Source: PVC group bacterium
Lineage (GTDB): Bacteria; Auribacterota; Erginobacteria; Erginobacterales; Erginobacteraceae
NCBI GenBank assembly: GCA_043804695.1
Contig: JAZDIV010000071.1
Location: forward strand, 1 to 23,735
Direction of reading: 5' to 3'
DNA length: 23,735 nucleotides
Shown here: positions 173 to 23,546 of the stretch, one piece after another
Layout: the number at the start of each line of letters is the position of its first letter
Position numbering within the stretch: the first letter of the stretch is position 1
Notes under the pieces: generated by a model
The model's database searches: none
What the model was told of the DNA's origin: nothing
The model's input: only the letters and a program-made list of their open reading frames with translations
Position numbers and translations under genes: made by a program

Positions 173-244
173 AAATCCCAAATCTCAAGCACCTCAGCCA
201 AAGGTTGATCAGCCTTTGGCTGAGGTGCTTGTTATTTAGGATTT
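173..244. repeat. Inverted heptamer arrays joined by a 30-bp double-hairpin element (194-223)
   Basis: aaatccc aaatctc aagcacc [tcagccaaaggttgatcagcctttggctga] ggtgctt gttattt aggattt. The right arm overlaps the murC-like stop codon and could also act as a terminator. Confidence 0.85.
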
Positions 245-1624
245 TTCCCCGGCAATTTGCCGGGAAATTCGGCGGGCGAGAGCGCTCAGCCCGGGGTCGC
301 GGGCGCCCATGATCAGACAGACCATCCCGGACCCGCCGGACCGCTCGAGATCGGCCAGCAGGGCCTCCGGGCCGGGCAGGACCGAAACCCGGGCCGGACC
401 GGCGATCACGGCGGCCAGTTCTTCCGACCCGAAACCGGGCTGCACCGTCCCGCCCGGGTAATAGACCGGGAGCAGGATCAGCCGGTCGCCGGCGCCGAGC
501 CCCCGGGAAAAGGCGGCGGCCAGCTCGCGGCGGAACCGGCGCAGGGGGGCGAAACCGTGCGGCTGATAGACGGCGGTCACCGGGAGGCCAAACCTACGGG
601 CCGTCTCCAGGGCGGCGGCGATCTTGGCCGGGTTATGGGAGTAATCATCAATCACGACCAGGGCCGGCGACGAATAAACGATTTCCATCCTCCTCTTTAC
701 CCCCGGGAAATCAGCGACGGCGGGGGCGGCCCGGGCCGGATCGAGACCGGCCAGAGAGGCGGCCGCGACCGCCGCCAGGGAGTTGTAAACATTGTGGAGC
801 CCGGGCAGGGGGACGAGGAACCGGACTCCACAGAGCGTAAAAAATGACCTTTCCCGGCCGATGTCAATCTCCCGGGCCCGGAAATCGGACGCGGCATCAA
901 CGGAGAAGGTGACCGCCGGAACGCGGAGGGACCGGATCAGCCGGCTCTCCGGGCAGTCGGCGTTGAGCACGACCCCCTTCCGGCAGCTTCCGGCGAACCG
1001 CCCGAAAATCTCTCTCAGGCGTTCGATCTCGAAGTGGTCGGGGGAGATGTTGGTGATCACGCCGTGGGCCGGAAGATACCGTTCCAGGACGCCGTCGCTC
1101 TCATCGGCCTCGAAGCAGAACCATTCCGATTTTCCCAGCCGGGCATTCCCCCATCCTCTCTCCTTCTCCTTCAGGGGGGCCCCGATGACGAACGTGGGGT
1201 CGCGGTCATTCCGGGCGAGGATCCAGCTCAGAAGCGCCGCCGTGGTGGACTTGCCGTTGGTCCCCGCCACCGCCAGCGATTCCCGCCCCCGGGTAAGCCG
1301 CAGCAGGTAATCGCCCCGGCTCACCACCGGCACCCCGGCCGTTTCCGCCGCCCGGAGATCGGGGATCTCCGCCTCCACCGCCGCCGAGCTCACCGCCTCG
1401 GCGGCATTTTTCACCCCCGATCCGTCCTGGGGAAAGATGGCGATCCCCTCCCCTTCCAGGCATTGGCGGAGGTCGGCCGCCTCGCCCCGGTCGAAGAAGC
1501 GGTCGGAGCCGCTCACCTCCCGCCCCTGCCAGCGGGCGACCTGGGCCAGCGCGCTCATCCCCGTGCCGCCGATCCCGACAAAATGGATTTTTTTTCTTGC
1601 GGGGATAAATGCATCCTTCTTCAT
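236..1624 (-). CDS. murC: UDP-N-acetylmuramate--L-alanine ligase-like Mur ligase (MurC/Mpl family)
   Basis: GIGGTGMSALA N-terminal motif, GSD, P-loop AGTNGKSTT, EADESDG, ITNISPDH, DDYSHNP, YQPHG. Lies outside a dcw cluster, so it may be a recycling paralogue. Confidence 0.8.
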   Translation of the reverse strand: MKKDAFIPARKKIHFVGIGGTGMSALAQVARWQGREVSGSDRFFDRGEAADLRQCLEGEGIAIFPQDGSGVKNAAEAVSSAAVEAEIPDLRAAETAGVPVVSRGDYLLRLTRGRESLAVAGTNGKSTTAALLSWILARNDRDPTFVIGAPLKEKERGWGNARLGKSEWFCFEADESDGVLERYLPAHGVITNISPDHFEIERLREIFGRFAGSCRKGVVLNADCPESRLIRSLRVPAVTFSVDAASDFRAREIDIGRERSFFTLCGVRFLVPLPGLHNVYNSLAAVAAASLAGLDPARAAPAVADFPGVKRRMEIVYSSPALVVIDDYSHNPAKIAAALETARRFGLPVTAVYQPHGFAPLRRFRRELAAAFSRGLGAGDRLILLPVYYPGGTVQPGFGSEELAAVIAGPARVSVLPGPEALLADLERSGGSGMVCLIMGARDPGLSALARRISRQIAGEKS

Positions 1625-1681
1625 TAGTGTTGCATCAGTGTTTAAACCATGAAACTTTCTCCCCTGCCGAGCGAGGCGGCA

Positions 1682-1826
1682 GGGGCCGGTTTTTGGGTTT
1701 GGTGTCCTGCTTTAGCTGCTGAACTTTCGCTCCGGTGGGACAAGCCCACCGGGGGCGATTTTTTATTTTAATGTCGCAGGATAGCTTTTTAACTTCCGCT
1801 CCGGTGGGATGAACCCACCGGGGGCG
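1682..1826. repeat. 69-bp tandem duplication, each unit carrying a REP-like hairpin CCGGTGGG-N5-CCCACCGG
   Basis: Hairpins at 1732-1752 and 1801-1821. The flanking tgtc, tagct and aactt motifs recur at exactly 69-bp spacing. Confidence 0.8.
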
Positions 1827-1847
1827 TATCTCAGTCATCCCGGGGGA

Positions 1848-1874
1848 ACATTCGACATTCGATATTCGATATTC
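1848..1874. repeat. Heptamer tandem array (AYATTCG)x4
   Basis: acattcg acattcg atattcg atattc. Confidence 0.8.
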
Positions 1875-1886
1875 TTTATTCAATAT

Positions 1887-2639
1887 TTAAATTTTTACCA
1901 CCATCCCGTCCTCCCCCCGGATCACTTCTCCGGGGAACTCCTTCCGACACTCCTTGACCGGGTCGATTCCGTCACAGAGAGAATCCATGTGAGTGAGAAG
2001 AACCTTTTTCACCTCCGCCCGCCGGGCGATGATCCCCACCTGGCGGGGGGTGAGGTGCATCGGAACCCCCGCCCCGTCCGGGAAGGAGCACTCGCAGACC
2101 AGAAGATCGGCGGACCGGGAAAGGCTGATCAGGGAATCGCAGGAGCCGGTGTCGCCGGAATAGACGGCCGATCCGCCCCGGAGCTCCTCCACCCGGTAGG
2201 CGATGCTTTCGGGATTGTGAAGAACCGGGGCCGTCCGGGCCCGCCAGCCGGATCCCGACCACCACCGGTCCGCGATCTCGTGGATCAGGACCCGGTATCC
2301 GCTCCCCTCCAGCCACCGGGGATAGAGGGCGTTGAACCCCTCCATCAGATCCACCAGACCCGGAGGCCCGGCAATCAGGATGTCCCTTTCACGGGGTTCC
2401 GGGTCGTACCGGGAGGCGAAGAGGAAGTGGGGCAGGCCCAGGGTGTGATCGGGGTGAAAATGAGTGACCAGTATCCGATCGATCTCCCGGTGGCGGTATC
2501 CGGCTGCCAGCAAGCCCCGCAGTATGTCGGGCCCGCAGTCGAAAAGCAGCTTCTCCTCCCCGGCCTCCATCACCAGGCCGGGCGACGCCCGCCGGAGGGA
2601 CGGGCTGGAAACGCCGGTGCCGATGAGCGTGATCTTCAT
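1887..2639 (-). CDS. MBL-fold metallo-hydrolase, RNase Z/BN-like family
   Basis: MKITLIGTG start, FDCG, THFHPDH (HxHxDH), YSGDTG, CECSF, HLTP, LLTH. Confidence 0.85.
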   Translation of the reverse strand: MKITLIGTGVSSPSLRRASPGLVMEAGEEKLLFDCGPDILRGLLAAGYRHREIDRILVTHFHPDHTLGLPHFLFASRYDPEPRERDILIAGPPGLVDLMEGFNALYPRWLEGSGYRVLIHEIADRWWSGSGWRARTAPVLHNPESIAYRVEELRGGSAVYSGDTGSCDSLISLSRSADLLVCECSFPDGAGVPMHLTPRQVGIIARRAEVKKVLLTHMDSLCDGIDPVKECRKEFPGEVIRGEDGMVVKI

Positions 2640-2844
2640 TATAAATTAGCGCCTCCGGTGCTAATTTAGAAGAATTGGGGTGAATTGTACCTTTTAAACT
2701 CGTAACAGACTGATGATTACCCAAAAATTAGTTTGAATGCAACTGCTCAATAAACAACGGTAAGCCCTGAACGTAATAAAACAAAACAAAATATCTTCCT
2801 GGTTGCTTTTTCGCCTGTTTCGGACTTGTAGGAATTGTAGGAGA

Positions 2845-2971
2845 TGTAGTATCGCCTTGCCTCCGGCAAGGCTTGCTGAACTACAAGCGAAGCGATCCTT
2901 CAATTACTACAAAGAATGCCGAAGACATTCTGATCCTGCAAGTCCTTCACGAAGTGAAGGACGATACTACA
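2845..2971. repeat. Inverted pair of GTAG-type REP-like hairpins (REPIN-like doublet)
   Basis: TGTAGTATCG (2845-2854) followed by hairpin GCCTTGCC-TCC-GGCAAGGC. Hairpin GTCCTTCAC-GAA-GTGAAGGAC (2942-2962) followed by CGATACTACA (2962-2971). Confidence 0.7.
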
Positions 2972-3018
2972 CTATTTGAATACACCTTTTCTTGAAATTC
3001 CTGAGCAGCACGTGAGAT

Positions 3019-4566
3019 TTACGGTAACTTAGAACTACCATGGTTTTCTCTCACCGGCTTCACTCTCCCGGCCAGAACTTCGGCCAGGGCCCGGACGGAC
3101 AGCGGGCCGGGGCCGCGGGTGATCAGCACCGTCCCCGCCCGGGGGAACAGCTTCGCGTCACGGGGATCCCGCACCACCGCCAGGACCGCGTCCGGCCGGC
3201 GCTCCAGCAGGGCCCCGATCAACTCCCGCTGCTCCGGGAACCGGTAGGCGTCGCAGGCGGTGATAACGACCGGGAGCTCACCGGCGGCGGCCGCCAGCGC
3301 CCGGGCTCTCTCCTCCGGTGACGGCCGGAGAGGAAGATTAATGATCCCGGGCGCAAGTCCCGCCGCCCGGAACGGCGCGGCCGGCCCGCCCGATGCCGCG
3401 GCCCTGTCCCCCACCTCGACGGTCCGTTCCGGCTCGAACCAGACCAGGAGGAACGGTCTCTTCTTCCCAGCCGCGAATCCCTTCCCGGAAATCCGTTCGG
3501 CCGATACGGCTCCCCGGGCAATCCGGAAAGCGAAGTCATCCTCACCGCCCGGGGGAGGGACTCCCGGCAGGGGCAGACGCGCCTTGAGGGCGGCGATTCT
3601 CTCCCGGCTCTCCCTGATCCGCTCCCCGACTTCCCGGTCCGCCGCGCCGCTTTTATGAAGGAGACGGAACGTCCGCTCCCGGGCGGAGGGCGAGTGGCAG
3701 AGGAGAAGCATGTCCACTCCGGCCCGGAGGGCGGTCAGGGCGGCCTCGTCCGCCGCGCCGGCGGCCCCCACGGCGCCCATCCCCAGGTCATCGCTGATCA
3801 GGACCCCCCGGAAATGAAACTCGTCCCGGAGCAGCCCGGTCAGCACGGGCCGGGAAAGGGTGGCCGGACGGATCCGGCCGCCGTCAAGAGCGGGATAAGC
3901 GGCGTGAGACGTCATGACCGCCTCTACTCCGGCCTCCACCGCCGCCCGGAAAGGCGCCAGATCCCGGCGCCGGATCACGCGGGCCGGCGTCCGGATCACC
4001 GGCAGTTCCTGATGCGAATCCCGCCGGGCCGCGCCCTTGCCCGGAAAGTGCTTGGCGGTGGCCGCGATCCCCCCGGCCTGCATCCCCCGGATCAAAGCGC
4101 TCCCCAAGGAGGCAACCCTTTCCGGATCGCCCCCCAGAGAACGGAGCCCGAGACTGTGACTCCCTTCCGGAGAGTAGAGATCCAGAACCGGCGCCAGGTT
4201 GATGGTGATCCCCTGCCGGCGCAATTCCCGGCCGGTAATCAGTCCCTGGCGGTGCGCGTCTTCGGGCGACCCCGCGAACCCCAGCGCCAGGTTGCCCGGA
4301 AAAGCCGTCATCCCCTCCCGTAACCGGGCGACCGTTCCTCCCTCCTGGTCCACCGCGATCAGAAGGGGGCTGTCGGCGACCTCCCGCCGCAATGCCCCCA
4401 GTTCCCGGCAGAGCCCGGAAACCTGCCCGGCGCCCCGGATATTTCTCCCGAACAAGATCACCCCCCCCACCCGCCACTCGAGGATGTACCGGCGGAGGCG
4501 GGCATTCAGTGACTGCCCTTCAAACCCCACCATCAGTAATTCGCCCGGATCGCCGTCGTTTTTCAT
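3019..4566 (-). CDS. nagZ: Beta-N-acetylhexosaminidase, glycoside hydrolase family 3 (two-domain NagZ)
   Basis: GGVILFGRN, IAVDQEGG, NLAPVLD, KHFPGKGAARRDSH (NagZ signature variant), ISDDLGM nucleophile region, and a C-terminal extension. Confidence 0.9.
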   Translation of the reverse strand: MKNDGDPGELLMVGFEGQSLNARLRRYILEWRVGGVILFGRNIRGAGQVSGLCRELGALRREVADSPLLIAVDQEGGTVARLREGMTAFPGNLALGFAGSPEDAHRQGLITGRELRRQGITINLAPVLDLYSPEGSHSLGLRSLGGDPERVASLGSALIRGMQAGGIAATAKHFPGKGAARRDSHQELPVIRTPARVIRRRDLAPFRAAVEAGVEAVMTSHAAYPALDGGRIRPATLSRPVLTGLLRDEFHFRGVLISDDLGMGAVGAAGAADEAALTALRAGVDMLLLCHSPSARERTFRLLHKSGAADREVGERIRESRERIAALKARLPLPGVPPPGGEDDFAFRIARGAVSAERISGKGFAAGKKRPFLLVWFEPERTVEVGDRAAASGGPAAPFRAAGLAPGIINLPLRPSPEERARALAAAAGELPVVITACDAYRFPEQRELIGALLERRPDAVLAVVRDPRDAKLFPRAGTVLITRGPGPLSVRALAEVLAGRVKPVRENHGSSKLP

Positions 4567-4629
4567 GACATCTCCGCAGTGCCCGCCCTGTAATTATTTG
4601 ATTTTTTTCGTTTCGGATGGGTTACCGCA

Positions 4630-4975
4630 CGAATGACTAAATCCTCAGCCAAAGGCTGATCAGCCTATGGCGGAGAATGATGAATGACGAATCAATGACT
4701 AAATCATCAGCCCGAGGCTGATCCGCCTCCGGCGGAGAATGTCCAAGCCTCCCTGCCTATCCTCCTTCGCCATAACAGTTCCAGCTCCAGCGACGTAAAG
4801 CGGTTTTGACGCTTGCGCGCCATAGCGCGCCGGCGAGATGGCGGATGACAAAAGTAGCCCTTAAAGACCAAGATTACAAGCACAGCAAGCACAAGCAAAG
4901 CAACGGGTTGAGGATTCTTTTGGACATTGGGACCTGGGCATTCTTTCGAGTTTCGTCATTCGGGTTTCGTCATGT
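4630..4975. repeat. Composite element: inverted AATGAC/GTCATT arrays with two 30-bp double-hairpin insertions (4645-4674, 4707-4736)
   Basis: With the inserts removed, the left arm reads atgactaaatccgaatga...aatgtccaa. This matches the reverse complement of the right arm (ttggacatt 4920-4928; ttcgtcattcgggtttcgtcat 4952-4973). Confidence 0.75.
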
Positions 4976-5257
4976 GAAATACTATCCACAATATCAACAT
5001 CTACCCACACAAAGAGAACCATTTTACCCCCCTAATCATCGCCGATCTATCTCTATTATTGAATAACCCGACATTACTCACACAATGGGTATGCGTTTTC
5101 TGGTATCGGCCTTTTGCCGGCGCGGGCAACAATAAACAGCCGATCGTCATTTTTTATTTGCATCACCGCACCTTTTGGCGTAGTTTCGGCGTATTTTCCG
5201 ACAAGTATCGATCGACAATGAGGCGGCTTTTTCCGGACGCGTCGGGATCATGGAAAC

Positions 5258-5752
5258 ATGAAAACAGAACCGGTTTATTTTTTCAGCCCGGCGGAATGGA
5301 GCGCGATTTACGTTCATAAATACTACCTCGCCCAGAAGGCCGGGGTGGAAGTGAGCCTCCAGGACACGATCGCGGACTGGCTGAAGAACTACGCCCGGTT
5401 GTGGCGGGAACAGGAAGAGGAGATCAAGAAACAAACCGGGAAGTATTCACCGGAGGGGGAACAGTTCAGCCCGGCGGAGTGGAAGGGGATCCAGGTCCAC
5501 CGGTATTTTCTCTCCCAGCGCTACTGCCGCTGGGTCAGCATCCAGGAGACCATCGCAGACTGGCTCAAGAACTACGCCCGGATCTGGCGCGAGAAAAGAA
5601 TGGAGCTCTCCTCCCGGAACCAGATGGAGCAGATCCTCAAGCATAAGTGGCTTGAATCCGAGAAGGTCAGGCACGATGTCGGGCAGAAAGCCGCCGCCGA
5701 TTGGATCGAGAAGTTCGCCAAGCAGTGGCGCCTGTGGTGGGAGACCGAGTGA
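5258..5752 (+). CDS. Protein with three tandem DUF4032-like helical repeats
   Basis: Three copies of I-x-x-H-[KR]-[YW]...DW-x-x-x-[YF]A-x-x-WR. The third copy (HKWLESEKVRHDVGQKAAADW) resembles DUF4032. Codon usage is GC3-rich like the neighbouring genes. Confidence 0.75.
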   Translation: MKTEPVYFFSPAEWSAIYVHKYYLAQKAGVEVSLQDTIADWLKNYARLWREQEEEIKKQTGKYSPEGEQFSPAEWKGIQVHRYFLSQRYCRWVSIQETIADWLKNYARIWREKRMELSSRNQMEQILKHKWLESEKVRHDVGQKAAADWIEKFAKQWRLWWETE

Positions 5753-5756
5753 GAGA

Positions 5757-5974
5757 AAAGTTCGAAGTGCCTAAAGTTCAAAGTGCCTAAAGTTGTCGCT
5801 TCGCCTGGCCGGGCACGGCCTTCCGACCCAATGGCGCAAGAAAGAGATGATGGATAATAAAGAGTTTTCTCAACTATCGGGAAATCCGGCAAAAGCAGGA
5901 GTACCAAGCGAGGCGAATAACTTTAGGCACTTTAGGCACTTCAAACTTTAGGCACTTTGAACTTTAGGCACTTC
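5757..5974. repeat. Paired inverted arrays of AAAGTGCCT/AAAGTTC units
   Basis: Left array aaagttcgaagtgcct aaagttcaaagtgcct aaagtt (5757-5794). Right array contains actttaggc four times (5919-5974). Lies between convergent genes. Confidence 0.85.
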
Positions 5975-5982
5975 AGTAACTC

Positions 5983-7911
5983 TCACCGGATCGGTATCAA
6001 CAGATCCGGCCGCTCACCTTTACTGTAGGGTACGTTGTCCTCCCCTTCCCCCCCCGGGATCGTCAGGATCTTTTCCGCGGCATCATGCCGCCCTGCCAGC
6101 CGGCAGGCGATCGCCAGCGCGTCGGCGATCCGGGGAACCCCGGGGTATTCTTTCACCAGCATCTCCAAAAGAGCGATCGCCCGGCCGGTCTCACCCCGGT
6201 CCAGATAGGTCAGGGAGAGGTTGTACCGCGCCCGTGGGCTGTCCGGCAAAATGGAGAGGGCGCGGTGGTAGACCGCCATGGCGCGGTCGGACATCCCGGC
6301 CTGGGCGAGCAGAAGACCGTATTCGCATAACGCGGGCACGAAACCAGGCCGATCGGCGAGCACCCGCTCGTACGCCCGGAGGGCCTCCTCCTTTTTCCCC
6401 ATCCGGGCATAGAGGCCGGCCAGGGAGTGATGGGTCACCCAGTCATCGCGGCTTTCCAGGATCTCCTCCAGGATGGCCGCGCCCGCCTCCGGCGATCCGG
6501 AACGGCCGAGCGCCCGGGCCAGGTTGCTCCTGGCCGCGAAGACGATCTCCTCCCGGGCCATCGGGTCGCCGTCCATCATCTCCAGAGCCCTCCGGAGATG
6601 CCGGATCGCGGCTTCGTCATCGCCCCGCTGATAGAGAATCTGCCCCAGGTGAGCCCGGGCCATCGGCGTGTCGGGGCAGGTCTCGACCGCATTCCGCCAG
6701 AGCGATTCCGACTCCCTCCAGACCACTGTCTGCCCGTGCGAGAGAAGGAGCAGGAAAGCCGCTCCGGCCAGGGCCGGGGCGGCGGCCCTCCGGTTCCAGG
6801 CCCGCCCCCCCGGCGCGGACAGGACGCACCAAAGCAGGCCCGCGATCCCGAAGGAGGGCAGGTAGGTGAACCGGTCGGCCGCCGCGGCCATCCCGGCCGG
6901 GAAAAGGCCGCTCACCGGGAGGATCGAGACCAGGAACCAGAGCCAGAAGAAAAGCGCTCCCCGACCGGAACGCCGCTGGAGAAAAACGGCGGCGGCGGTG
7001 ACTGAGGCGAGCAGCCCGATCGCCGGGAAAGCGCTCCAGGCGGACCCGGGAACGGCGGAGGGATAGGCGGCCGCCAGCCGGACCGGGAGAAAGAGTTTGC
7101 CCAGATAAAAAACCAGCGTCCGGGCGGCCAGAACTATCCGTTCCCCGGGGCCGATCGTCTCCAGCGGAATTAAGGCTTGGTTCCGGGCCTGCCCGTACAG
7201 GGCGATCAGGCCGGCCGCGAGCGCGAGCAGAAAAAACGGGATCTTCCCGGCCGCCCGGCGGAGCCCCCCGGGCGGCCGGCCCGGGACGTCGATGAGAAGA
7301 TCGGCCAGGATCAGGATTACAGGAAGCGTCACCGCCATCGGCTTTCCGAGCAGGGCCAGGAGGGCGAAGAGCAGCGACGCCGCATACCATCCCGGCCGTC
7401 CCCGCTCGCGGTAGCGGAAATAGGCCACAACGGAGGCCAGATAGAAAAAGCAGCAGAGAACGTCTTTCCGCTCGCTGATCCAGGCGACCGACTCCGCCCG
7501 GAGCGGATGAAGCGAAAAGAAAACGGCCGCGATGAACGCCGGGAAGACCGGAGCGGCTTCCGCCCCCGGCCGGAGACGCCTCCCCAGCCGGTACAATAAC
7601 GCGAACGCCAGCGCCGCCGAGGCGGCATGAATCAGGAGATTTTCAAGGTGATAGCCGAACGGATTCAGCCGCCAGAAGGCATAGTCGAAAGAATAACCGA
7701 TCCAGGCCAGCGGCTTGAAATCGCCCACGGTGAAATCAGTAAATATCCAGAGAAAGCCGTCCGTCCCGGCGGTCCTGATTTTCTGATGGAAGACGACGTT
7801 CTCCTCGTCATCCCAGTTGAGAAAGGACCCCGGCAGCGCCGGGAAGAAAGCAATCCCATTCAGGACAACCAGCAGAGAGATGGCAAGGCCGATGGACGCG
7901 CTATTTCTCAT
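5983..7911 (-). CDS. TMTC-like membrane glycosyltransferase (GT-C fold) with C-terminal TPR repeats
   Basis: First TM helix followed by NWDD, then HPLRAESVAWISERKD, KPMAV, ADRFTYLP, multiple TM segments, W...LW, and TPR helices. Confidence 0.8.
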   Translation of the reverse strand: MRNSASIGLAISLLVVLNGIAFFPALPGSFLNWDDEENVVFHQKIRTAGTDGFLWIFTDFTVGDFKPLAWIGYSFDYAFWRLNPFGYHLENLLIHAASAALAFALLYRLGRRLRPGAEAAPVFPAFIAAVFFSLHPLRAESVAWISERKDVLCCFFYLASVVAYFRYRERGRPGWYAASLLFALLALLGKPMAVTLPVILILADLLIDVPGRPPGGLRRAAGKIPFFLLALAAGLIALYGQARNQALIPLETIGPGERIVLAARTLVFYLGKLFLPVRLAAAYPSAVPGSAWSAFPAIGLLASVTAAAVFLQRRSGRGALFFWLWFLVSILPVSGLFPAGMAAAADRFTYLPSFGIAGLLWCVLSAPGGRAWNRRAAAPALAGAAFLLLLSHGQTVVWRESESLWRNAVETCPDTPMARAHLGQILYQRGDDEAAIRHLRRALEMMDGDPMAREEIVFAARSNLARALGRSGSPEAGAAILEEILESRDDWVTHHSLAGLYARMGKKEEALRAYERVLADRPGFVPALCEYGLLLAQAGMSDRAMAVYHRALSILPDSPRARYNLSLTYLDRGETGRAIALLEMLVKEYPGVPRIADALAIACRLAGRHDAAEKILTIPGGEGEDNVPYSKGERPDLLIPIR

Positions 7912-8212
7912 TTTGAGCAGGATTATTGACTACCAGCAGAATAACTTTGTTCACGATATCATCGGAAGCCGGATTAATTCGGTATATCCTGAAAAACCCC
8001 GACTGCCGGCTTGTTAAAAAGCCGACTTTTTCCAACTGAATAAGATGTTTGGAAGTACTGCGTATAGACAGCTTGATCCTGCCGGCTATCTCTCCAACGT
8101 TAATTTCACGATCAGGAAAAAGTAATTTAATTATCCTGATCCGCCGATGGCAGGATACTCCTTTAAAGATCTCTTCCAGCTTCTTGATCGGGATATCCCT
8201 GGTATCAGCCAT
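7901..8212 (-). CDS. ArsR/SmtB family winged-helix transcriptional regulator
   Basis: IFKGVSCHRRIRIIKLL...NVGEIA...STSKHLIQLEKVGFL...G..RIY. The ATG at 8212 is preferred because GGGGTGA lies upstream (the ORF track starts at 8248). Overlaps the next gene by 11 bp. Confidence 0.85.
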   Translation of the reverse strand: MADTRDIPIKKLEEIFKGVSCHRRIRIIKLLFPDREINVGEIAGRIKLSIRSTSKHLIQLEKVGFLTSRQSGFFRIYRINPASDDIVNKVILLVVNNPAQNEK

Positions 8213-8335
8213 TATCTCACCCCTGTAACAATCAAAAGCCTCCGCCAACTATTCGCATATTCGCGCGAAAGTACCCATGCTCTCTCCGCCATTTTAATTC
8301 TCGTTTCCTTTTTGGCCCCTTTGCGATGGACAGAC

Positions 8336-10978
<2,643 letters not shown>

Positions 10979-14703: not shown

Positions 14704-14718
14704 GGGCCTTGCCTCCTT

Positions 14719-14745
14719 TTAAAATTTTTCTTCGAAAAATTTTAA
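14719..14745. promoter_or_regulatory. Palindrome adjacent to the groES RBS (second copy)
   Basis: TTAAAATTTTTC-TTC-GAAAAATTTTAA with perfect 12-bp arms. Confidence 0.55.
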
Positions 14746-14892
14746 TATTGAACACATGTCATTTTTACTTCTTTATCGGGGTCTGACTTTTTTTCGATAT
14801 CCCTGGTCACCTCCTTTTTAACTCTTGATCAATCAGAACGCAAACTGATATGCCGCGTCAATAAAACGGGGGCCCGCCGCCGATATTCCCGC

Positions 14893-16821
<1,929 letters not shown>

Positions 16822-17011
16822 TTATTTTTCCTCCTCGGATTTATCTAAATTATCTTGCTTCGCTCGCAAATTCAGATAATTACATTTTTTATAATGATTA
16901 AACTTATAGATTTAATATTAATAAATGTCCAACGGCTTGCGCCAATACGGTAACTCCGACCCATTATTGATATTCCGAAGGAACATGGTTATTCGAGTCA
17001 TACACTATAGA

Positions 17012-17027
17012 TGCAATTAACATGCCA
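17012..17027 (-). promoter_or_regulatory. Sigma54 (-24/-12) promoter for dnaK
   Basis: The minus strand reads TGGCATGTTAATTGCA, i.e. GG-N10-GC in TGGCA...TTGCA context. It points toward dnaK and has an AT-rich tract upstream. Confidence 0.7.
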
Positions 17028-17226
17028 CTTCGGAAGAATATCCCTAAAAATAAATAATTCATTGCAACTAGTTAAAATTAAATCAATTATAAAAACAGCC
17101 AGTATACTATCAACAGAGTTTGCCGGCTGGATGGATGAGTAATCATGACACACATTCAGCCTGCTGTCACGGCAGTGTATCTTTTTGTCTCAGTCGGGAC
17201 GCTGGGATCTGTCGGATGAATTATGA

Positions 17227-17291
17227 GGAGTACTGGAGTGATGGTGTGGTCAAATATAGGGTGATGGAGTGTTGGAATGATGGAGTGATGG
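17227..17291. repeat. Degenerate octamer array (TGGAGTGA)n
   Basis: tggagtga, tggagtgt, tggaatga, tggagtga. A related degenerate array lies at 12616-12639. Confidence 0.7.
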
Positions 17292-17419
17292 TGACTGTCT
17301 CCCTTTATCCATCAATCCCCCTTCTTACCTTTTTATTCAATTCTCTTTCGTGTTCTTCGTATACTTCGTGGTATTATTCCCCTAATTAGATGACCTTGCA
17401 TTCGTCCATCGGCGGCATG

Positions 17420-17445
17420 GGGGCGATCACAAGGATCGCCCCTAC
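17420..17445 (-). repeat. GTAG-family REP sequence
   Basis: Minus strand GTAGGGGCGATC-CTTGT-GATCGCCCC: a GTAG foot with a 9-bp stem. Confidence 0.8.
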
Positions 17446-17478
17446 ACCCGGTTTATTGAAATTCCGAGGCAGCAGGTT

Positions 17479-17889
17479 ATGATCACCGAAAAAGAACGAG
17501 ATGAACTGCTCCGCCGGGCCGGGGAAGCCAGGAAGCACGCCCATGCTCCCTACAGCAGATACCTGGTGGGGGCGACGGTCCTCACCGCGAAGGGAAACTA
17601 CTTTAGCGGCTGCAACGTGGAGAACGCGGCGTTCACCATCACCACCCACGCGGAAGGGAACGCGCTGGGCGCCGCAGTCGCGGCCGGGGAGACCGAGTTC
17701 ACGGCGCTTTTAGTGCTGACCGACGGTTCCCCTCCCCCATTCCCCTGCGCCATCTGCCGCCAGTCCCTGGCCGAGTTCGACCGGGGTGAGATGCTGATCC
17801 TGGCCGCCAATACCGGCGGAGAGATCCGGGAGATCCGGTTCTCCGAACTTTATCCGGAGATGTTCGGCCCCCACAAACTGGGGATATAA
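17479..17889 (+). CDS. cdd: Cytidine deaminase (homotetrameric type)
   Basis: APYS, GCNVENA, and the HAE and PCAICRQ zinc motifs. Confidence 0.95.
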   Translation: MITEKERDELLRRAGEARKHAHAPYSRYLVGATVLTAKGNYFSGCNVENAAFTITTHAEGNALGAAVAAGETEFTALLVLTDGSPPPFPCAICRQSLAEFDRGEMLILAANTGGEIREIRFSELYPEMFGPHKLGI

Positions 17890-17925
17890 TTTTCCCCTCA
17901 CCGGAACGGTGAGGGGAAAATTATA
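17885..17925. terminator. Perfect 19-bp hairpin between convergent cdd and priA (probable bidirectional terminator)
   Basis: TATAATTTTCCCCTCACCG-GAA-CGGTGAGGGGAAAATTATA. Contains both stop codons. Confidence 0.7.
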
Positions 17926-20170
17926 ACATCGAGATCGGGTCGACATCGACCTCGATTTTCACGTCCCGGTCGCGGCCCAGTCCCGGGAGCACCTCCCGGA
18001 GGGCCCGGAGAGTGGAGACCACCCCCTTCGTCTTCATCAGCAGCTGATGGCGGTACCGGCCCCGGATCCGGCTGATCGGGGGCGGGGCGGACCCCATGAT
18101 CTCGTCCGCCCTGTCCAGGGCGGGGGCGAGGAGCCGCCCGAGATGCTCGCAGACCCGCCGGCTCTTTTCCTCGTTGCGGGAAAGGACCGTCACGATGATG
18201 AAGTGATTGAGGGGCGGGTAGCCCAGCTCCTCCCGGAACACAATCTCTTTTTCGAAGAACGGCCCGTACTCCTGCCGGACGGCGGCGACGAGGGCGGGAT
18301 GGCTCGGAGAATAGGTCTGGACGATGACCGTCCCCTTCAGCTCCCCCCGGCCCGCCCGGCCGGCGACCTGGGTCAGAATCTGGAAGGTGTACTCGGTGGC
18401 CCGGAAGTCGGCCAGGCTCAACGCCGTGTCGGCCATGATCACCCCGACCAGGGTCACGTTGGGGTAATCGAGCCCCTTGGCGATCATCTGGGTCCCGACC
18501 AGGATGTCAATCCGTCCAGCCTTGAACTCCTCCAGTATCCGGCGGTGGGCGTCCCGTTCGCCGACCGCGTCGGTGTCCATCCTCCGGACCCGGGCCCGCG
18601 GGAATATTTTCCCGATCTGCTCCTCGATCCGCTGGGTCCCCCGGCCGGAAAAGGTCAGATGTTTCGACCCGCAGGCCGGGCACCGGGGCGGCGGGGGGGC
18701 GGTGCAGCCGCAGATGTGGCAGACCTGGCGGCCGGTCCGCTTGTGGTAGGTCAGCGAGACGCTGCAGTGGCTGCACCGGGCGACATAGCCGCAGTCCGGG
18801 CAGGTAAGCACGGTGAAGAACCCCCGGCGGTTCAGGAAGAGGATCGTCTGCCTCCCCGCGTCCAGGTTGTTTTTTATCTCGACGAGCAGGGTGTCCGAGA
18901 AAGAGATGCCGCCCTTCTGCCGCTCCCACTCCCGGCGCATATCGACGATCTTCACCGCCGGCAACATCGCCTCCTCGGGCCGGTTCCGCAGGGAGAGAAG
19001 CGTGTACTTCCCCTGCCGCTGGTTATAGTAGCTTTCGATCGACGGGGTCGCCGAGCCGAGGATGACCCCGCATCCATCGATCTTGCCCCGCATCACGGCC
19101 ACGTCGCGGGCGTGGTAAAAGGGGCTGATCGCGGACTGCTTGTATGACGTCTCGTGCTCCTCGTCGACGATGATCAGGCCGGGGTTCTTCAGCGGGGCGA
19201 AGACCGCCGAGCGCGGGCCGAGGACGACCCGGGCGCGGCCGTCCGCGATCCGCCGCCAGGCCTCGTAGCGCTCTCCCGCGGACTGGGCGCTGTGGATGAT
19301 GACCACCTCTTCCCCGAAGCGAGCCCGGAACCTCTCCCCGGTCTGCGGGGTCAGGGATATTTCCGGGACCAGCACGAGCGCCTCCTTCTCCCTCTCCAGC
19401 ACCAGCGAGATGGCCTGGAGGTAGATCTCGGTCTTGCCGCTCCCGGTAATCCCGTGAAGAAGAAAGACCAGGAAATCTTCACCGGCGATCGCCTCCCGGA
19501 TCGCCGCGAAAGCGGCCTCCTGTTCCCCGGTGAGCCGGAGGGGGCGGGTGGGCAGGATATCCTCTCGCCGACGCCGGGCGGCATACCGGTCTTCCCCGGC
19601 CACGGCGACCAGCCCCTTCTTCTCCAGGGCGGCGAGCGAGCCGCGGGAGGAGGAGGCGGACTTTAGAAGGTCGGCAACGGCCACCGGGCCTCCCCTTTTC
19701 CGGGCCAGGCAGTCGAGGATGGCGGCCTGCCGGGGGGCTTTTCCGATCAGTTCCGGTATCGCGGCCCGGGCCTGTTCCTCCGGCACGGAGAGGGACGCCT
19801 GCCGGATCAATGCCGGCTGCCGGCTGTTCCGAACCGGGGCCGGCAGCGCGGTCTTGAAGGCCCGGGGGAACGAACAGAAGTAGTACCGGGAGACCCATCG
19901 GATCAAGGAGACCAGGCTCTCCCCGAAGAGGGGCTCCGCCTGGATGATCCGGATCAGCGGCCGCGGCTCCTTGCCGGGGGGGGATTCCTTCACCAGGCCG
20001 GTCACGAAGCCGGCGGCACGCGTTCCGCCCAGAGGGACCAGGACCTTCTGCCCCACCCGCAGTCTCCCGGCCAGGGCGCCGGGGATCGCGTAGGTGAAAC
20101 AGAGATCGGCCGGGAGGTTTATGACAACCTCGGCGTAGTGAATATCGTCACTTGGTGGAATAACACTCAT
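17921..20170 (-). CDS. priA: Primosomal protein N' (replication restart helicase PriA)
   Basis: GITGSGKTE, DEEHE, SATPS, four CxxC pairs, GTQMIAKGLD, QVAGRAGR, DVDP C-terminus. Confidence 0.98.
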   Translation of the reverse strand: MSVIPPSDDIHYAEVVINLPADLCFTYAIPGALAGRLRVGQKVLVPLGGTRAAGFVTGLVKESPPGKEPRPLIRIIQAEPLFGESLVSLIRWVSRYYFCSFPRAFKTALPAPVRNSRQPALIRQASLSVPEEQARAAIPELIGKAPRQAAILDCLARKRGGPVAVADLLKSASSSRGSLAALEKKGLVAVAGEDRYAARRRREDILPTRPLRLTGEQEAAFAAIREAIAGEDFLVFLLHGITGSGKTEIYLQAISLVLEREKEALVLVPEISLTPQTGERFRARFGEEVVIIHSAQSAGERYEAWRRIADGRARVVLGPRSAVFAPLKNPGLIIVDEEHETSYKQSAISPFYHARDVAVMRGKIDGCGVILGSATPSIESYYNQRQGKYTLLSLRNRPEEAMLPAVKIVDMRREWERQKGGISFSDTLLVEIKNNLDAGRQTILFLNRRGFFTVLTCPDCGYVARCSHCSVSLTYHKRTGRQVCHICGCTAPPPPRCPACGSKHLTFSGRGTQRIEEQIGKIFPRARVRRMDTDAVGERDAHRRILEEFKAGRIDILVGTQMIAKGLDYPNVTLVGVIMADTALSLADFRATEYTFQILTQVAGRAGRGELKGTVIVQTYSPSHPALVAAVRQEYGPFFEKEIVFREELGYPPLNHFIIVTVLSRNEEKSRRVCEHLGRLLAPALDRADEIMGSAPPPISRIRGRYRHQLLMKTKGVVSTLRALREVLPGLGRDRDVKIEVDVDPISML

Positions 20171-20229
20171 AGAAAAGCTGAACGTTCATTCTTTTTTCTG
20201 TCATCTATCAGTCGTTGCAACCGCGGTTT

Positions 20230-21000
20230 TTATTCCATTTTTTCTAAAAAATCCCGCAGCATCTTCATGTCCTCCCAGACTTTCTTCCGGTTCTCCGGGG
20301 TGTAGACCCGGAGCAGGTAGGCGGGGTGGTAGGTGGGGAGGAGGGGGATCCCCCGGTAATCGTGGAACCGGCCCCGGAGCCGGCCGATCCCGGACTCGGT
20401 TTCCAGCAGGGTCTTGACGGCCGGGGAGCCAAGGGTGACGATAACGCGGGGGCGCAGGAGCTCGATCTGCTTCTCCAGGAAGGGCCGGCAGGCGGCCGCC
20501 TCATCTGATTGGGGATCGCGGTTGTCGGGCGGACGGCACTTCACGATGTTCGTGATGTACACGTCATCGCGGCTGAGCGAGATCGAGGACAGGACTTTCT
20601 CCAGGAGCTGCCCCGAGCGGCCCACGAACGGGCGCCCGATCCGGTCTTCATCCGCTCCCGGCCCCTCGCCGATAAAAAGAATCCGTTTCCGGTTCCCGCC
20701 CTCTCCGGGGACGACCTGCCGGCGGGTGGAAGCGAGGCCGCATTTCCGGCAGCCCGCGATCTCCCGGAGCAGGGCCCGAAACCGCTCCGGAAGAGAGGCC
20801 GCCTCCTTTTCCGGGAGGGTCTTTTCCGCCGCCGGGGGGGCCGTCCGGGCCGCCCGGGGTTTCTTCTTCACCAAGCCGGCCGGGCCGCGGGCCGACTCGA
20901 CGGTTTCAATCCCCTCCTCCTTCAGCTGCTCGAAAAAGCGGCGGAAATCGTAGAGGAGCTCCCGCATTTTCTCCTCTATTTTTTCTTCGCTTTTATTCAC
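20230..21000 (-). CDS. Uracil-DNA glycosylase, family 4
   Basis: CRKCGL, IGEGPG, RPFVGRSG, NIVKCRPPDNRDP, TYHPAYLLR. GTG start, with an alternative internal ATG possible. Confidence 0.95.
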   Translation of the reverse strand: MNKSEEKIEEKMRELLYDFRRFFEQLKEEGIETVESARGPAGLVKKKPRAARTAPPAAEKTLPEKEAASLPERFRALLREIAGCRKCGLASTRRQVVPGEGGNRKRILFIGEGPGADEDRIGRPFVGRSGQLLEKVLSSISLSRDDVYITNIVKCRPPDNRDPQSDEAAACRPFLEKQIELLRPRVIVTLGSPAVKTLLETESGIGRLRGRFHDYRGIPLLPTYHPAYLLRVYTPENRKKVWEDMKMLRDFLEKME

Positions 21001-21014
21001 AACACGTTCCGTTT

Positions 21015-21273
21015 TAACCTGGATTGTTCATGAAAATGAAATATTTTCATGAACAATCCAGGTTACTGATTATCTTTCAATGTATTGTGGAAAGCAAACG
21101 TGTTCACACGCCGAAAGCACACTATTTTATCTTCCCCGAAAGGACTACGTGCTGTTCTTCCGGTTAACCCGATTTACGGCTGTCTGTCGCCAGACAGCCG
21201 TAAATCGGGTTAAATCATTATGCCTGAATATCCGCGCGACATCAATAACCCGATTTATTCATACATCGGGTTA
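21015..21273. repeat. Cluster of three TAACC...GGTTA-ended inverted repeats
   Basis: Perfect 23-bp arms at 21015-21065 and 21164-21213, and 9-bp arms at 21246-21273. Confidence 0.85.
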
Positions 21274-21305
21274 GTTTTAAAACGGGAGTAACAGCCCTGA
21301 AGGCG

Positions 21306-22073
21306 TCAAACCCGCAAGAGCGGTCTGACGATCTCGTCAAAGATACTGAAGGATGCCTGAAGAGCCGGTGATTCAACCGGAAGCCGCAGGAGGGACTTCT
21401 CCTCCAGGTCGAAGGCGTCGACCAGGGGATCGTGAGGGATCGCTCCGATCAGGGAGAGCCCGGGGGGGGCGGTGGGCGGGCTCCCCGCCTCCATCGCGGC
21501 CGGCACCTGATTGAAGATGAGGTGCTCCGCTTTCGCTTCGATCTTCAGCTCCCGGACCAGATCGTGAATGCGGACGGCGGTCTTCAGCCCCCGGGGGCTG
21601 GGGCCGAAGACGATCAGGAGAAGATCCAGGCGGCGCAGGAGCCGGCGGCTCAGATGTTCCAGACCCGCTTCATTGTCAACCACCATCGCCGGGTATTGAA
21701 CGGAGATGGCCTGCAGGATGCTCCGCAGGACCTGGTTCGGGTAGCAGTAACAGCCGGGCCCTTCGGGCCGGCCCATGGTGATCAGGTCGTACCCGTCTTC
21801 CTCGGCGATGCTTTCCTCGAGGCCCATCCGCAGCAGTTCCTGCTTGCTCAGGGCGGTGGGATTTTTTTTCGTCTCCTCTAAAAGCTCGTCGCAGATCGTG
21901 CCCACATCCCCGTCCGGGGCAATCCCCAGCACCCGCCCCAGGTTGGCGTTGGGGTCGGCGTCCACCGCCAGGACCGGGCGGGGCCCCTTCTCCAGCAGAT
22001 ACCTGATCAGGAGGGCCGCAACGGTGGTCTTCCCCACCCCGCCTTTGCCGCAGATGCCGATGATTGCCGTCAC
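21306..22073 (-). CDS. cooC: CooC/AcsF-type nickel-insertion ATPase (CODH/ACS maturation)
   Basis: GKGGVGKTT, DADPNANL, GRPEGPGCYC, DNEAGLEHLSR. Confidence 0.9.
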   Translation of the reverse strand: MTAIIGICGKGGVGKTTVAALLIRYLLEKGPRPVLAVDADPNANLGRVLGIAPDGDVGTICDELLEETKKNPTALSKQELLRMGLEESIAEEDGYDLITMGRPEGPGCYCYPNQVLRSILQAISVQYPAMVVDNEAGLEHLSRRLLRRLDLLLIVFGPSPRGLKTAVRIHDLVRELKIEAKAEHLIFNQVPAAMEAGSPPTAPPGLSLIGAIPHDPLVDAFDLEEKSLLRLPVESPALQASFSIFDEIVRPLLRV

Positions 22074-22142
22074 AATTATTCCCAGAGTAATCTATCAATT
22101 TTTCAATGTATCACAATTAGGTTTTGAAGCCGCAAGGTTTAT

Positions 22143-22231
22143 AAATTCCAAATTACAAATTCCTCAGCCAGAGGCTGATCCGCCTCTGGCGGAGATCAGC
22201 CTTTGGCTGAGGAATTTGTGATTTGGGATTT
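22143..22231. repeat. Inverted heptamer arrays joined by one complete and one partial 30-bp element
   Basis: aaattcc aaattac aaattcc [22164-22193] [gatcagcctttggctga] ggaattt gtgattt gggattt. Confidence 0.85.
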
Positions 22232-22238
22232 CAAGGAG

Positions 22239-23306
22239 CTATTCATTTTTTATTCGCTCGGATATTTCATAGTTAATCTTCAATATCTTCCGGCACTGCT
22301 CCGGTGTCACCGTCCCCATCCCGCAGCTGGGGGTGATCAGGGATTTCTCGATCAGCTCGGTGCGGGGAATCCCCTCCTCTTCCAGTCTTTCCCATGAAAC
22401 CATCAGCCGCTTCCAGAGAGAGTCGGCGTCCTCACTGTCGATATCACTGGTAGAGGGAGTAATTCCCCAGGCCAGCAAGCCACCCCGTTCCAGAAAATCC
22501 CGGACCTGCCCGGCATAGAGAAGAAGGTTTTTCGCATAGCCGAACGCGTCGAAACTCAGGATATCGACATCGGTTCTCATCAGAATCGACCAGTCGGTAT
22601 TGGCACAGCAATGTATCCCGGCCAGCGCCCCCTCCTGGTGAATCCCGGCAATCACCTCATTCAATTTTTCGATCACATCCCCGATCCGGAGACTGACCAG
22701 GGCCGAGCCGACCGACGCCAGGTACGGTTCATCGATGAAGATGAGGACCCGGTCGCAGTAGGGCGAGCATTTCCCTACCTGCCATCGTGCTTTCAGGGCG
22801 ATTGTCTTCGTTATGGCGTCGAATATTTCCGCGTTATACAGGGACGGCTTCCGGTTCTGATCGGTGATGGTGAGGCCGAAGGTGATCGGGCCGGTCACGC
22901 ACCCCTTGATATTAGGATAGCGGTGCCCCAAAGCCAGATACTTCAATAATGAATCAAATCCAAGAGCGTAGTCCGGAGTAGGGCCGAAGAATTCCAGGTC
23001 CTCCTCAATCAATTTCAGGTAGAAAGCTTCCAGTTCGGCACCGAGACCATCATCGATTCTGAAAGAAATCTTTCCCCCCTCGATATCCAGAATCAGGGCG
23101 GGCATCCCTTTGCTGAACTGGGGACACATGTTCTCTTTCAGACCCCTTTTCGGCAGCTGCGGCCAGGCGGGAGCTTCGGGGAGGTACTCCCGGATCAGGT
23201 CAAGGGCCGGCGCCGGGTCGATCTGCGGAAAACTCCCGATCGCGGTCGCTAAACCGCAGGGTTTGAACTCGTCTATTCTGTCGCCCGTGTTATCCATGTT
23301 ATCCAT
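22239..23306 (-). CDS. Core (single-barrel, MetE C-terminal-like) methionine synthase, probably MesB-like
   Basis: TAIGSFP, WPQLP, KGCVTGPITF, FIDEP, GIHCC, SFDA, AWG, ITPSCG zinc-site motifs. At 355 aa it lacks the N-terminal folate-binding barrel. Confidence 0.8.
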   Translation of the reverse strand: MDNMDNTGDRIDEFKPCGLATAIGSFPQIDPAPALDLIREYLPEAPAWPQLPKRGLKENMCPQFSKGMPALILDIEGGKISFRIDDGLGAELEAFYLKLIEEDLEFFGPTPDYALGFDSLLKYLALGHRYPNIKGCVTGPITFGLTITDQNRKPSLYNAEIFDAITKTIALKARWQVGKCSPYCDRVLIFIDEPYLASVGSALVSLRIGDVIEKLNEVIAGIHQEGALAGIHCCANTDWSILMRTDVDILSFDAFGYAKNLLLYAGQVRDFLERGGLLAWGITPSTSDIDSEDADSLWKRLMVSWERLEEEGIPRTELIEKSLITPSCGMGTVTPEQCRKILKINYEISERIKNE

Positions 23307-23323
23307 AACAATTCACCTGAGAA

Positions 23324-23546
23324 AAATCCCAAATTCCAAGCGCCTCAGCCAAAGGCTGATCTCCTCCAGAGGCGGATCAGCCTCGGGCTGAAGCCTCCGG
23401 CTGAAAATAACAAATAAATCACAAATAAATTCCTCAGCCAAAGGCTGATCAGCCTCCGGCTGAAAATCACAATGACCAAAACGATCAGGCTACACCGTCA
23501 GATGTGGAACGGTTGTTTGTTATTTGGGATTTGTTATTTGAAATTT
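23324..23546. repeat. Paired inverted heptamer arrays with three 30-bp element insertions, one nested
   Basis: Left array 23324-23477 is interrupted at 23345-23404 (nested pair) and at 23434-23463. Right array gttattt gggattt gttattt gaaattt (23519-23546). Confidence 0.85.

Follow-up and report, generated by a model that had tools for sequence, protein, structure and literature searches.

Can 30 nt of DNA without any gene make up a mobile element, and if so, what moves it? The question is raised by contig JAZDIV010000071.1 of a PVC group bacterium (Erginobacteraceae), 23,735 nt long and analysed over its whole length (hereafter, the window), in which a 30-nt sequence (the 30-mer) that can fold into two back-to-back hairpins recurs between genes. 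A reading made from the letters of the window only (the sequence-only reading) had proposed that this is a very small mobile unit inserting precisely into arrays of short-period repeats. We found that the 30-mer is a dyad-symmetric, gene-less insertion module composed of two 15-nt hairpin units, T-S-M-GCC-N3-GGC-K-S-A, that meet at a central GATC. Sites either hold or lack it as an exact 30-nt unit (or as 30+17k nt, or as 60 nt when nested), without target duplication, and its landing site is a pyrimidine-pyrimidine|purine-A step (Y-Y|R-A), the centre of another copy included. Its mobiliser may be a small stand-alone GIY-YIG nuclease.

Copies in the window and architecture of the module

The window is the entire contig C71 of genome bin G000 (2.97 Mb in 155 contigs, 57.8% G+C) and is collinear with contig C45 of G001, a genome of the same genus. 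Allowing at most one mismatch, the 15-nt unit TCMGCCNNNGGCKGA was matched 16 times in the window, compared to a mean of 0.53 in 100 dinucleotide shuffles, none of which reached 16. Fourteen of the 16 matches are contained in six sites, all of them intergenic relative to the Pfam-supported open reading frames (ORFs); the remaining two (at 7493 and 14963) are lone, one-mismatch matches inside TPR and DnaK genes and are probably due to chance. Every copy listed by the sequence-only reading was recovered where it had been placed, those at 194-223 and 23362-23391 each with one stem mismatch. The copies, together with a carrier repeat and an empty site, are as follows:

173-244: 72-nt near-perfect palindrome, centred on the 30-mer copy at 194-223 (loops AAA/TTT, one G>T mismatch in the first stem)
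4645-4674: 30-mer copy, TCAGCC-AAA / TCAGCC-TAT-GGCGGA, inside GAATGAC-type heptamer units; four paralogous empty junctions
4707-4736: 30-mer copy, TCAGCC-CGA / TCCGCC-TCC, in the same heptamer array as 4645-4674
5920-5975: paralogous empty site, a ACTTTAGGC-type array with the intact junction ggcacttc|aaacttta (5941|5942; C71:5930 among the empty junctions)
22164-22210: 47-nt form, i.e. a 30-mer (22164-22193) plus an extra 17-nt unit (GA+TCAGCCTTTGGCTGA; 22194-22210), with inverted AAATTCC/GGAATTT heptamers on the flanks
23320-23551: host carrier, with an A-rich heptamer arm (aaatccc aaattcc aagcgcc ... aaataac aaataaatcac ...), a central spacer and a complementary T-rich arm, gtttgttatttgggatttgttatttgaaattt; the G001 carrier is without hairpin modules
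23345-23404: 60-nt form, in which a 30-mer (23362-23391, TCCTCC variant, one stem mismatch) is nested at the GATC|AGCC boundary inside the copy 23345-23361 plus 23392-23404
23434-23463: 30-mer copy, loops AAA/TCC, in the same array as 23345-23404; two paralogous empty junctions

The first site lies just downstream of a Mur-ligase gene (minus strand, ending at 236), and its palindrome folds into one long hairpin (-29 kcal/mol, z -11).

In G000 as a whole there are 158 exact 15-nt units, and a widened stem alphabet, T[CG][AC]GCC-N3-GGC[TG][GC]A, gave 88 blocks of at least two units. Block lengths were 30 nt (65 blocks), 47 (15), 64 (3), 32 (2), 34, 98 and 149 nt, that is, essentially 30+17k. When the genome was searched with an open pattern that imposes no pairing (T-N-N-GCC-N3-GGC-N-N-A), most of the 241 matches had complementary stems (CA/TG 102, CC/GG 51, GC/GC 32) and each non-complementary combination occurred at most four times; given this near absence, the stems must be kept as base pairs. 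The proposal that stems are conserved, with a compensatory change, and that loops vary therefore holds as far as the compensatory change is concerned. The loops are not wholly free, however: beside the central core, one loop base hardly varies (NNA in hairpin 1, TNN in hairpin 2) and pairs in 107 of the 116 cross-phylum copies among the matches listed. Among these same listed matches the common form is the heterodimer TCAGCC/TCCGCC (101/116). Within G000, loop sequences appeared by eye to be carrier-specific.

Folded as single-stranded DNA, the 30-mers gave two hairpins of 6-bp stem and 3-nt loop (-10.1 and -11.3 kcal/mol, z -4.1 and -3.9). The alternative of a single long hairpin was rejected, as only 10 of 116 copies among the matches listed have loops that are reverse complements of each other, so that it is the two hairpins, and not a single long one, that are conserved. 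Nested insertion was likewise rejected as the sole source of the 13- and 17-nt arrays: 13-mer and 17-mer counts are unequal (by eye), which implies that slippage also acts.

Empty and filled sites

The most direct evidence for insertion came from comparison with G001. Upstream of the gene at 22239-23306, G001 has an A-rich heptamer array (...aaatcccaagcacc|aaataacaaataaatcacaaat..., junction aagcacc|aaataac), and the window has exactly 60 nt more at this point (23345-23404). The copy at 23434-23463 is also absent from G001, along with a one-heptamer difference. At a second locus (L157) G001 holds a single 30-mer and contig C35 of G000 a 60-mer, the alignment showing one clean 30-nt gap at TCAGCCAGAGGCT|GATCCGCC. 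Neither nested insert allows its boundaries to move by a single base, no duplication is seen, and the inner copy has a mismatched GGAGGA/TCCTCC stem variant common to the two. We also looked for paralogous empty junctions, defined as the left 13 nt and right 13 nt of a filled site joined elsewhere in G000 with at most two mismatches, and found them for 49 of the 87 filled sites, including the non-repetitive tgcttcggaattt|caataaatgtcgt (8 empties). The junction ggcacttc|aaacttta, intact at 5941|5942, is filled by a 30-mer in about 12 other G000 copies of that carrier.

The core of the sequence-only reading, an exact insert without target duplication in pre-existing arrays, is supported by a 60-nt orthologous empty site, a 30-nt nested indel and 49/87 paralogous empties. 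The empty alleles that it had proposed looking for in relatives do exist in G001, and together with the clean nested indel they back a discrete, gene-less module. An artefact or adapter origin was ruled out by orthologous conservation, loop diversity and genomic context. The ORF at 22239-23306, which has modules on both flanks, was considered as a transposase and rejected; it is a conserved MetE-like metabolic gene.

In G000 the 30-mer is almost entirely intergenic and sits in several carrier repeats, head-to-head short-unit arrays among others, which are also found without it. Carriers move as well: a ~236-nt family-D element with a 30-mer in G001 is wholly missing at the orthologous site of G000. 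The ~560-nt repeat block that holds 4645-4674 (between a GH3 gene and a DUF4032 gene) is wholly missing in G001. Much of the G000 copy number is probably carrier spread rather than many independent 30-mer insertions. At the intergenic site of 22164-22210, the repeats in G001 are unrelated. Site 194 is filled in both species: G001 has an uncollapsed carrier with a 30-mer (loops AAA/TCG), and in G000 the carrier has collapsed around the 30-mer dyad into the 72-nt palindrome, the stems being retained between species and the loops differing.

Five more distant metagenome relatives have quite different head-to-head short-unit arrays at the same intergenic sites, where hairpin units are absent; judged from these sequences, the head-to-head repeat system at these positions appears hypervariable. 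At the flanks of the MetE-like gene, for instance, metagenome loci L213-L217 each show, at matching intergenic positions, an array of their own (aacgttcaacg..., cacgaagaacacgaag..., caaagacgcaaag..., ggagtgatggagt...). A 25-nt flank of site 23345 scanned against metagenomes gave no match, and contigs of three runs held only 30-35-nt look-alikes in other contexts. The idea that the element itself creates the short-period repeats around it was rejected, since such arrays occur without it in G001 and in all five more distant relatives, and since 14 of 113 cross-phylum loci are periodic among the matches listed. These last figures also qualify the suggestion that the module parasitises another repeat family: in G000 it does sit in repeats that exist without it, but this is a local habit.

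Target preference and genic context

Across phyla, the flanks of the 30-mer share a symmetric preference, (T/G)-Y-Y | element | R-A, and are otherwise unrelated: among the matches listed, position -2 is a pyrimidine in 103 of 113 loci, +1 a purine in 104 and +2 an A in 91. The Y-Y and R-A steps belong to the target, because the empty orthologous site retains cc|aa. In the window, the earlier observation that most insertions follow CC is true for five of the six sites. Short-period flanks are enriched yet a minority (14/113 among the matches listed, versus 4 for outer flanks and 0 for shuffles). The tRNA T-/D-loop cases described below and site 194 gave the idea that hairpin loops or palindrome tips are the target. 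It was rejected: at least six consecutive flank-flank base pairs were found in 3 of 113 loci against a permutation mean of 1.32, so pairing is not enriched, and there is no covariation between positions -1 and +1 (odds ratio 1.06, p 1.0).

Only two of the 88 G000 blocks lie in a frame that is open for at least 60 codons on both sides, compared to 1261 of 2000 random 30-nt windows. These two, at C46:4517-4546 (495+111 codons) and C60:22000-22029 (90+80 codons), are possible in-frame copies. In other phyla copies are found upstream, downstream and inside genes, and in 12 of 110 cross-phylum loci among the matches listed a reading frame stays open across the element and 150 nt on either side. By eye, several of these loci look like real proteins with ten extra residues (e.g. 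...QPKADQPQAE... in MoeA-, primase- and PilM-like sequences).

Distribution

The element is widespread and not private to this lineage. Of 40 sampled relatives, the same-genus genome has 25 matches and two other genera of the family have 34 and 2, and the 30-mer was found in none of five genomes of a fourth family genus and none of 32 from the remaining order and phylum. A scan of one genome per species with the exact pattern, which specifies 24 positions and for which our own chance estimate over the collection is well below one, returned at least 116 loci. The bins listed belong to Patescibacteria (many classes), Ignavibacteria, Bacteroidota, Gammaproteobacteria, Binatia, Omnitrophota, Elusimicrobia, Verrucomicrobiota, Planctomycetia, Bdellovibrionales and others. 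Copy number is 1-115 per genome in 50 of the matched genomes, with 9-16 copies in genomes of 0.5-1.1 Mb. Within one order of the Candidate Phyla Radiation (CPR), 10 of 121 sampled genomes carry the 30-mer. It is rare in viral contigs (11 loci) and absent from the E. coli genomes searched, and Rfam 15 gave no match in the window at gathering score.

Association with tRNA genes and small GIY-YIG nucleases

An intact tRNA lies within 150 nt of 11 of 116 30-mer loci among the matches listed, with the 30-mer usually placed in the D- or T-loop of an incomplete copy adjoining the intact gene. In an Ignavibacteriaceae bin (L029, 130-247), a tRNA-Ser(GGA) was detected only once the 30-mer had been removed in silico from its D-loop, the 330-nt locus holding no intact copy. 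At C64:3017-3830 of G000, partial 3' copies stand behind both a tRNA-Thr and a tRNA-Gly, each copy matching its own tRNA and holding a TGCGCC/TCCGCC 30-mer in the T-loop (ggttc|ga); behind the tRNA-Gly a 99-nt unit (tRNA 3' end, 44-nt spacer, 5' half of the T-arm and 30-mer) occurs twice in tandem, with no ORF.

In three of 127 30-mer loci, from three different genomes, an ORF of the M(K)YYVY(I/V)L type begins 9-25 nt downstream of the element. These and similar ORFs encode small GIY-YIG proteins of 79-108 aa that keep Y5, Y16, G18, R26, H30 and E62 (the GIY/YIG tyrosines, Arg, His and Glu), and their nearest solved relatives are UPF0213 proteins (E 7e-8), SLX1 being a weak match. In five element-bearing genomes, units were found within -300/+400 nt of 11 of 23 small GIY-YIG loci. 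A complete 30-mer ends 9-42 nt before the start codon in 5 of 21 ORFs (L225, L228, L226, L229 and L230), from four genomes, and an intact tRNA lies within 350 nt of 16 of the 21, mostly directly downstream. These loci are repeatedly arranged as [tRNA 5' piece, double hairpin, next tRNA bases], then the ORF, then [intact tRNA], or as the mirror image of this on the 3' side. Inside a tRNA-Ser gene of G211 (C30:9000-9700), L226 and L229 form a tandem of '30-mer + 89-108-aa GIY-YIG ORF' with a 323-nt period, the first ORF continuing into the next 30-mer (...SQRLIRHWRK...).

Single 15-nt units are associated with such genes as well. On contig C27 of G000, a 95-aa GIY-YIG gene lies between inverted cattgcga-[TCCGCC-N3-GGCGGA]-gaagcaatc repeats with a single unit in each; around its orthologues in relatives the inner hairpins are different ones. 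Behind a GIY-YIG gene of G003 lies a broken tRNA copy whose T-loop holds a TCCGCC-N3-GGCGGA unit. The outer cattgcga...gaagcaatc repeats flank this conserved 95-aa gene in G000, G001, G003 and G006. Because the same repeats bracket that gene, the repeat family looks like a gene-less form of the GIY-YIG cassette. G000 has many hairpin repeats of this family, their GC-rich inner hairpins varying (window 8-60 and 80-135; C27:25800-26480). Elsewhere in G000 (C152:11711-11932, minus strand), a long ORF contains, in frame, a small GIY-YIG-type module of ~85 aa, with sequence on both sides that resembles a type I restriction R subunit; the module is bordered by short cctgcc/ggcagg inverted repeats and looks like an in-frame insertion of a nuclease gene.

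What moves the module

We rank a small stand-alone GIY-YIG nuclease as the likeliest mobiliser, ahead of enzyme-free recombination or slippage and of an HUH/Y1 enzyme. That the window copies of the module described above were moved in trans by such a nuclease falls, in our judgement, a little below even odds. The window copies would then be non-autonomous, and the mobiliser would be a 79-108-aa GIY-YIG (UPF0213/SLX1-like) protein of the kind whose gene stands directly downstream of a 30-mer in other genomes, in cassettes beside tRNA genes. Cleavage by the nuclease would take place at or beside either the hairpin pair or a Y-Y|R-A target, followed by copying-in of the module; later slippage at the hairpins could account for the gain and loss of 13- and 17-nt sub-units and for the collapse of the carrier into a perfect palindrome at site 194.

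Several observations weigh against a GIY-YIG mobiliser. The window contains no GIY-YIG gene, and none of those in G000 is preceded by a full 30-mer. Small GIY-YIG genes are present in all 70 genomes of a CPR order, with or without the 30-mer, and also in the five genomes of the family that lack it. Whether a genome has such genes is therefore no argument in favour, and if nuclease and 30-mer are paired, it must be subfamily by subfamily. Other GIY-YIG copies carry different hairpin pairs (L231, L245, L241 and L269), so the GIY-YIG family as a whole does not track the 30-mer; going by these arrangements, the different pairs suggest cognate nuclease-hairpin couples. Dispersed copies are without the flanking homology that classical homing needs, and we know of no GIY-YIG enzyme that acts as a transposase. 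The adjacency of 30-mer and GIY-YIG gene could reflect a shared preference for tRNA-fragment DNA, and the orthologous gains could be gene conversion between carrier copies.

A bolder version of the GIY-YIG reading, which we place on the unlikely side, makes the 30-mer the cis-acting end of an autonomous element of ~320-330 bp, composed of the double hairpin and a 79-108-aa GIY-YIG nuclease reduced to its catalytic domain. Such an element would home into the D-/T-loop DNA of tRNA genes, which is universally conserved, repair the tRNA with the fragment that it carries, and shed ORF-less 30-bp derivatives that are pasted without duplication into Y-Y|R-A sites anywhere, even in frame in essential genes.

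It is also conceivable that no dedicated enzyme is involved, the module being spread by gene conversion or homologous recombination between carriers and by replication slippage or template switching at hairpins, with horizontal transfer of carriers explaining its range. The single fixed module position per carrier family in G000 and the carrier-specific loops (by eye) are in keeping with this, as are the gain and loss of whole carriers (the family-D element missing at its G000 orthologue) and the signs of hairpin-driven rearrangement, namely the unequal 13-/17-nt counts and the palindrome at site 194. We nevertheless regard it as unlikely: boundaries and Y-Y|R-A context are the same across phyla on unrelated flanks, copies occur in frame within unrelated genes, each nested insert is a whole 30-mer belonging to a distinct GGAGGA variant, and the borders offer no direct repeats that could guide slippage. 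The sequence-only reading had suggested an HUH/Y1 enzyme, i.e. mobilisation of a minimal two-hairpin element via single-stranded DNA by a protein like IS200/IS605 TnpA or the REP-associated tyrosine transposases (RAYT; REP, repetitive extragenic palindromic sequence). Exact boundaries, the lack of target duplication and a hairpin at either end of the element all speak for it, and candidate genes are at hand: Y1_Tnp is found in G000 (6 matches), in 9/9 family genomes and in 18/20 element-rich genomes, and sub-megabase CPR genomes hold several RAYT-like copies. None of the six G000 matches is near a unit, however, and only one of 26 Y1 loci in other element-bearing genomes has a 30-mer, ~600 nt off and thus not adjacent. 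Nor do Y1 genes discriminate element-bearing genomes: in one CPR order they occur in 7 of the 10 genomes that carry the element and in 38 of 60 that lack it, and they are also present in family genomes without it. In two genomes that hold 12 and 9 copies of the element, no Y1 gene was matched. Moreover, the target preference is symmetric on both flanks, unlike the one-sided preference of IS200/IS605, the cleavage points abut the hairpin feet, the GTAG/CGTC tag is absent, and the single REP-flanked RAYT of G000 has a different REP. The proposed mechanism gained no support, and we hold it to be unlikely, slightly more so than spread without an enzyme.

Least probable of all, in our view, is that the 30-mer is mainly a selected structure, such as a transcript-end or mRNA-stabilising hairpin or the binding site of a symmetric protein, with mobility secondary (or, in a variant, with an RNA intermediate like that once suggested for the Allomyces elements). 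Orthologous copies do retain stems and differ in loops, the intergenic bias in G000 is strong, and site 194 fits a bidirectional terminator-like pattern. In a scan of window positions 1-6000, though, 186-231 was the only element site to fit that pattern, among 7 hits in total compared to 8.0 in shuffles. Copies in other phyla lie upstream, downstream and inside genes alike, the distribution is patchy, no Rfam family matches, and close relatives that differ in having a copy show no obvious effect of it.

Two observations concern Y1 proteins in their own right. The classical 162-aa RAYT of G000 (C62:5765-6076) has its own REP on both sides (gtgggaggggtttccaaccccgat type, GTGGGAGGGG-type), unrelated to the 30-mer. 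The CPR genomes G045, G060, G087, G065, G042 and G046 (L191-L210) hold up to 8-13 copies of a ~220-250-aa Y1 protein that is nearer to the RAYT model than to the IS200 model, below the NCBIfam cut-off.

Comparison with known systems

The closest functional analogues in print are two. The small dispersed repeats SDR1-8 of the Nostocaceae, reportedly described by Elhai et al. in Genome Res in 2008 (work cited by PMC3116915 and PMC3733652), are said to be gene-less, dispersed and 21-27 nt long, with no mobilising enzyme identified there. They reportedly fold into a hairpin with compensatory changes, lie within tandem heptamer repeats or mini-transposons, and nest in one another. In the accessible part of a later source, SDRs are not found outside the Nostocaceae (PMC5861425). 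Compared by description only, our element is likewise tiny and dispersed, has compensatory stems, sits in heptamer arrays and nests in itself; it differs in being 30 nt long and dyad-symmetric, in occurring in many phyla, in its Y-Y|R-A target and in its link with GIY-YIG/tRNA cassettes. The double-hairpin elements (DHE) of Allomyces mitochondrial DNA (Paquin, Laforest and Lang 2000) consist, in the portion of the source available, of two adjacent hairpins without flanking duplication; their mobility was deduced by comparing close relatives that differ in them, with an RNA intermediate as the proposed route (PMC2800124). As far as that portion goes, the adjacent hairpin pair, the missing duplication and the kind of evidence for mobility are shared with the 30-mer, and the DHE differ in being mitochondrial and fungal. 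We know of no nuclease gene or tRNA association for the DHE.

With REP sequences and the REP doublets called REPINs, the 30-mer shares short GC-rich palindromes, high copy number, intergenic location and a non-autonomous nature, as these are set out in the accessible parts of PMC3116915 and PMC3733652. In contrast to them, its units begin with TCAGCC, TCCGCC or TGCGCC right at the stem and lack the GTAG/CGTC tag, no RAYT is flanked by units, and the hairpins abut without spacer. REPINs are described as vertically inherited in those same parts (PMC3116915, PMC3733652), unlike our element, which spreads across phyla. A miniature element derived from IS200/IS605 would share the absent duplication and differ by the two-flank target preference, and a classical miniature inverted-repeat transposable element differs in that the 30-mer shows no target-site duplication at exact empty/filled junctions. 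Rickettsia palindromic elements are ~100-150 nt long and confined to Rickettsia, and yeast mitochondrial GC clusters leave short duplications; like both, the 30-mer is a small palindromic insert able to sit in frame in protein genes.

As regards the nuclease, Seg proteins are ~200 aa or more and have a DNA-binding domain. One of them, T4 segB, is a free-standing GIY-YIG homing endonuclease gene that sits in the tRNA gene cluster of the phage and favours its own inheritance (PMC2330249). The genes described here are likewise GIY-YIG genes among tRNA genes, and differ in their length of 79-108 aa, in consisting of the catalytic domain only, in the double hairpin and in the partial tRNA duplication. 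The host carriers, for their part, resemble the paired tandem octa- and heptanucleotide arrays of Geobacter metallireducens, termed 'class 1-3 putative global regulator binding sites' in the available part of the source, which describes no hairpin insert for them (PMC2700814). In that part the arrays are facing, short-unit, on opposite strands and intergenic, a likeness that concerns the carriers and not the 30-mer. In the literature searched we found no description of the 30-mer or of hairpin/tRNA-linked small GIY-YIG cassettes, searches with sequence strings giving primers only. No described family is thus an exact match there, a point on which the novelty of the element had been made to depend, and the SDR and DHE are close analogues in function. 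The element is an insertion module without a duplication scar that resembles known but poorly understood very small mobile repeats.

Implications

Mobile DNA this small, gene-less and scar-free is missed by standard transposon finders and by gene annotation. It ranges from ultra-small CPR bacteria up to 8-Mb genomes and can add ten codons to proteins. Modules and carriers together break assemblies, yield spurious ORFs and mark fast-evolving intergenic regions that are useful in strain typing. How repeats of less than 100 nt move is, to our knowledge, still regarded as unresolved, and the 30-mer provides a sequence-defined case for the SDRs, mitochondrial double-hairpin elements and GC clusters. 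Its physical link with a minimal GIY-YIG nuclease and with tRNA genes makes the question of movement testable at the bench. If the 30-mer were indeed the end of a tRNA-homing GIY-YIG element, homing into tRNA genes would explain the spread across phyla, and the system would be the first cut-or-copy-and-paste system driven by a GIY-YIG enzyme and among the smallest autonomous mobile elements of bacteria.

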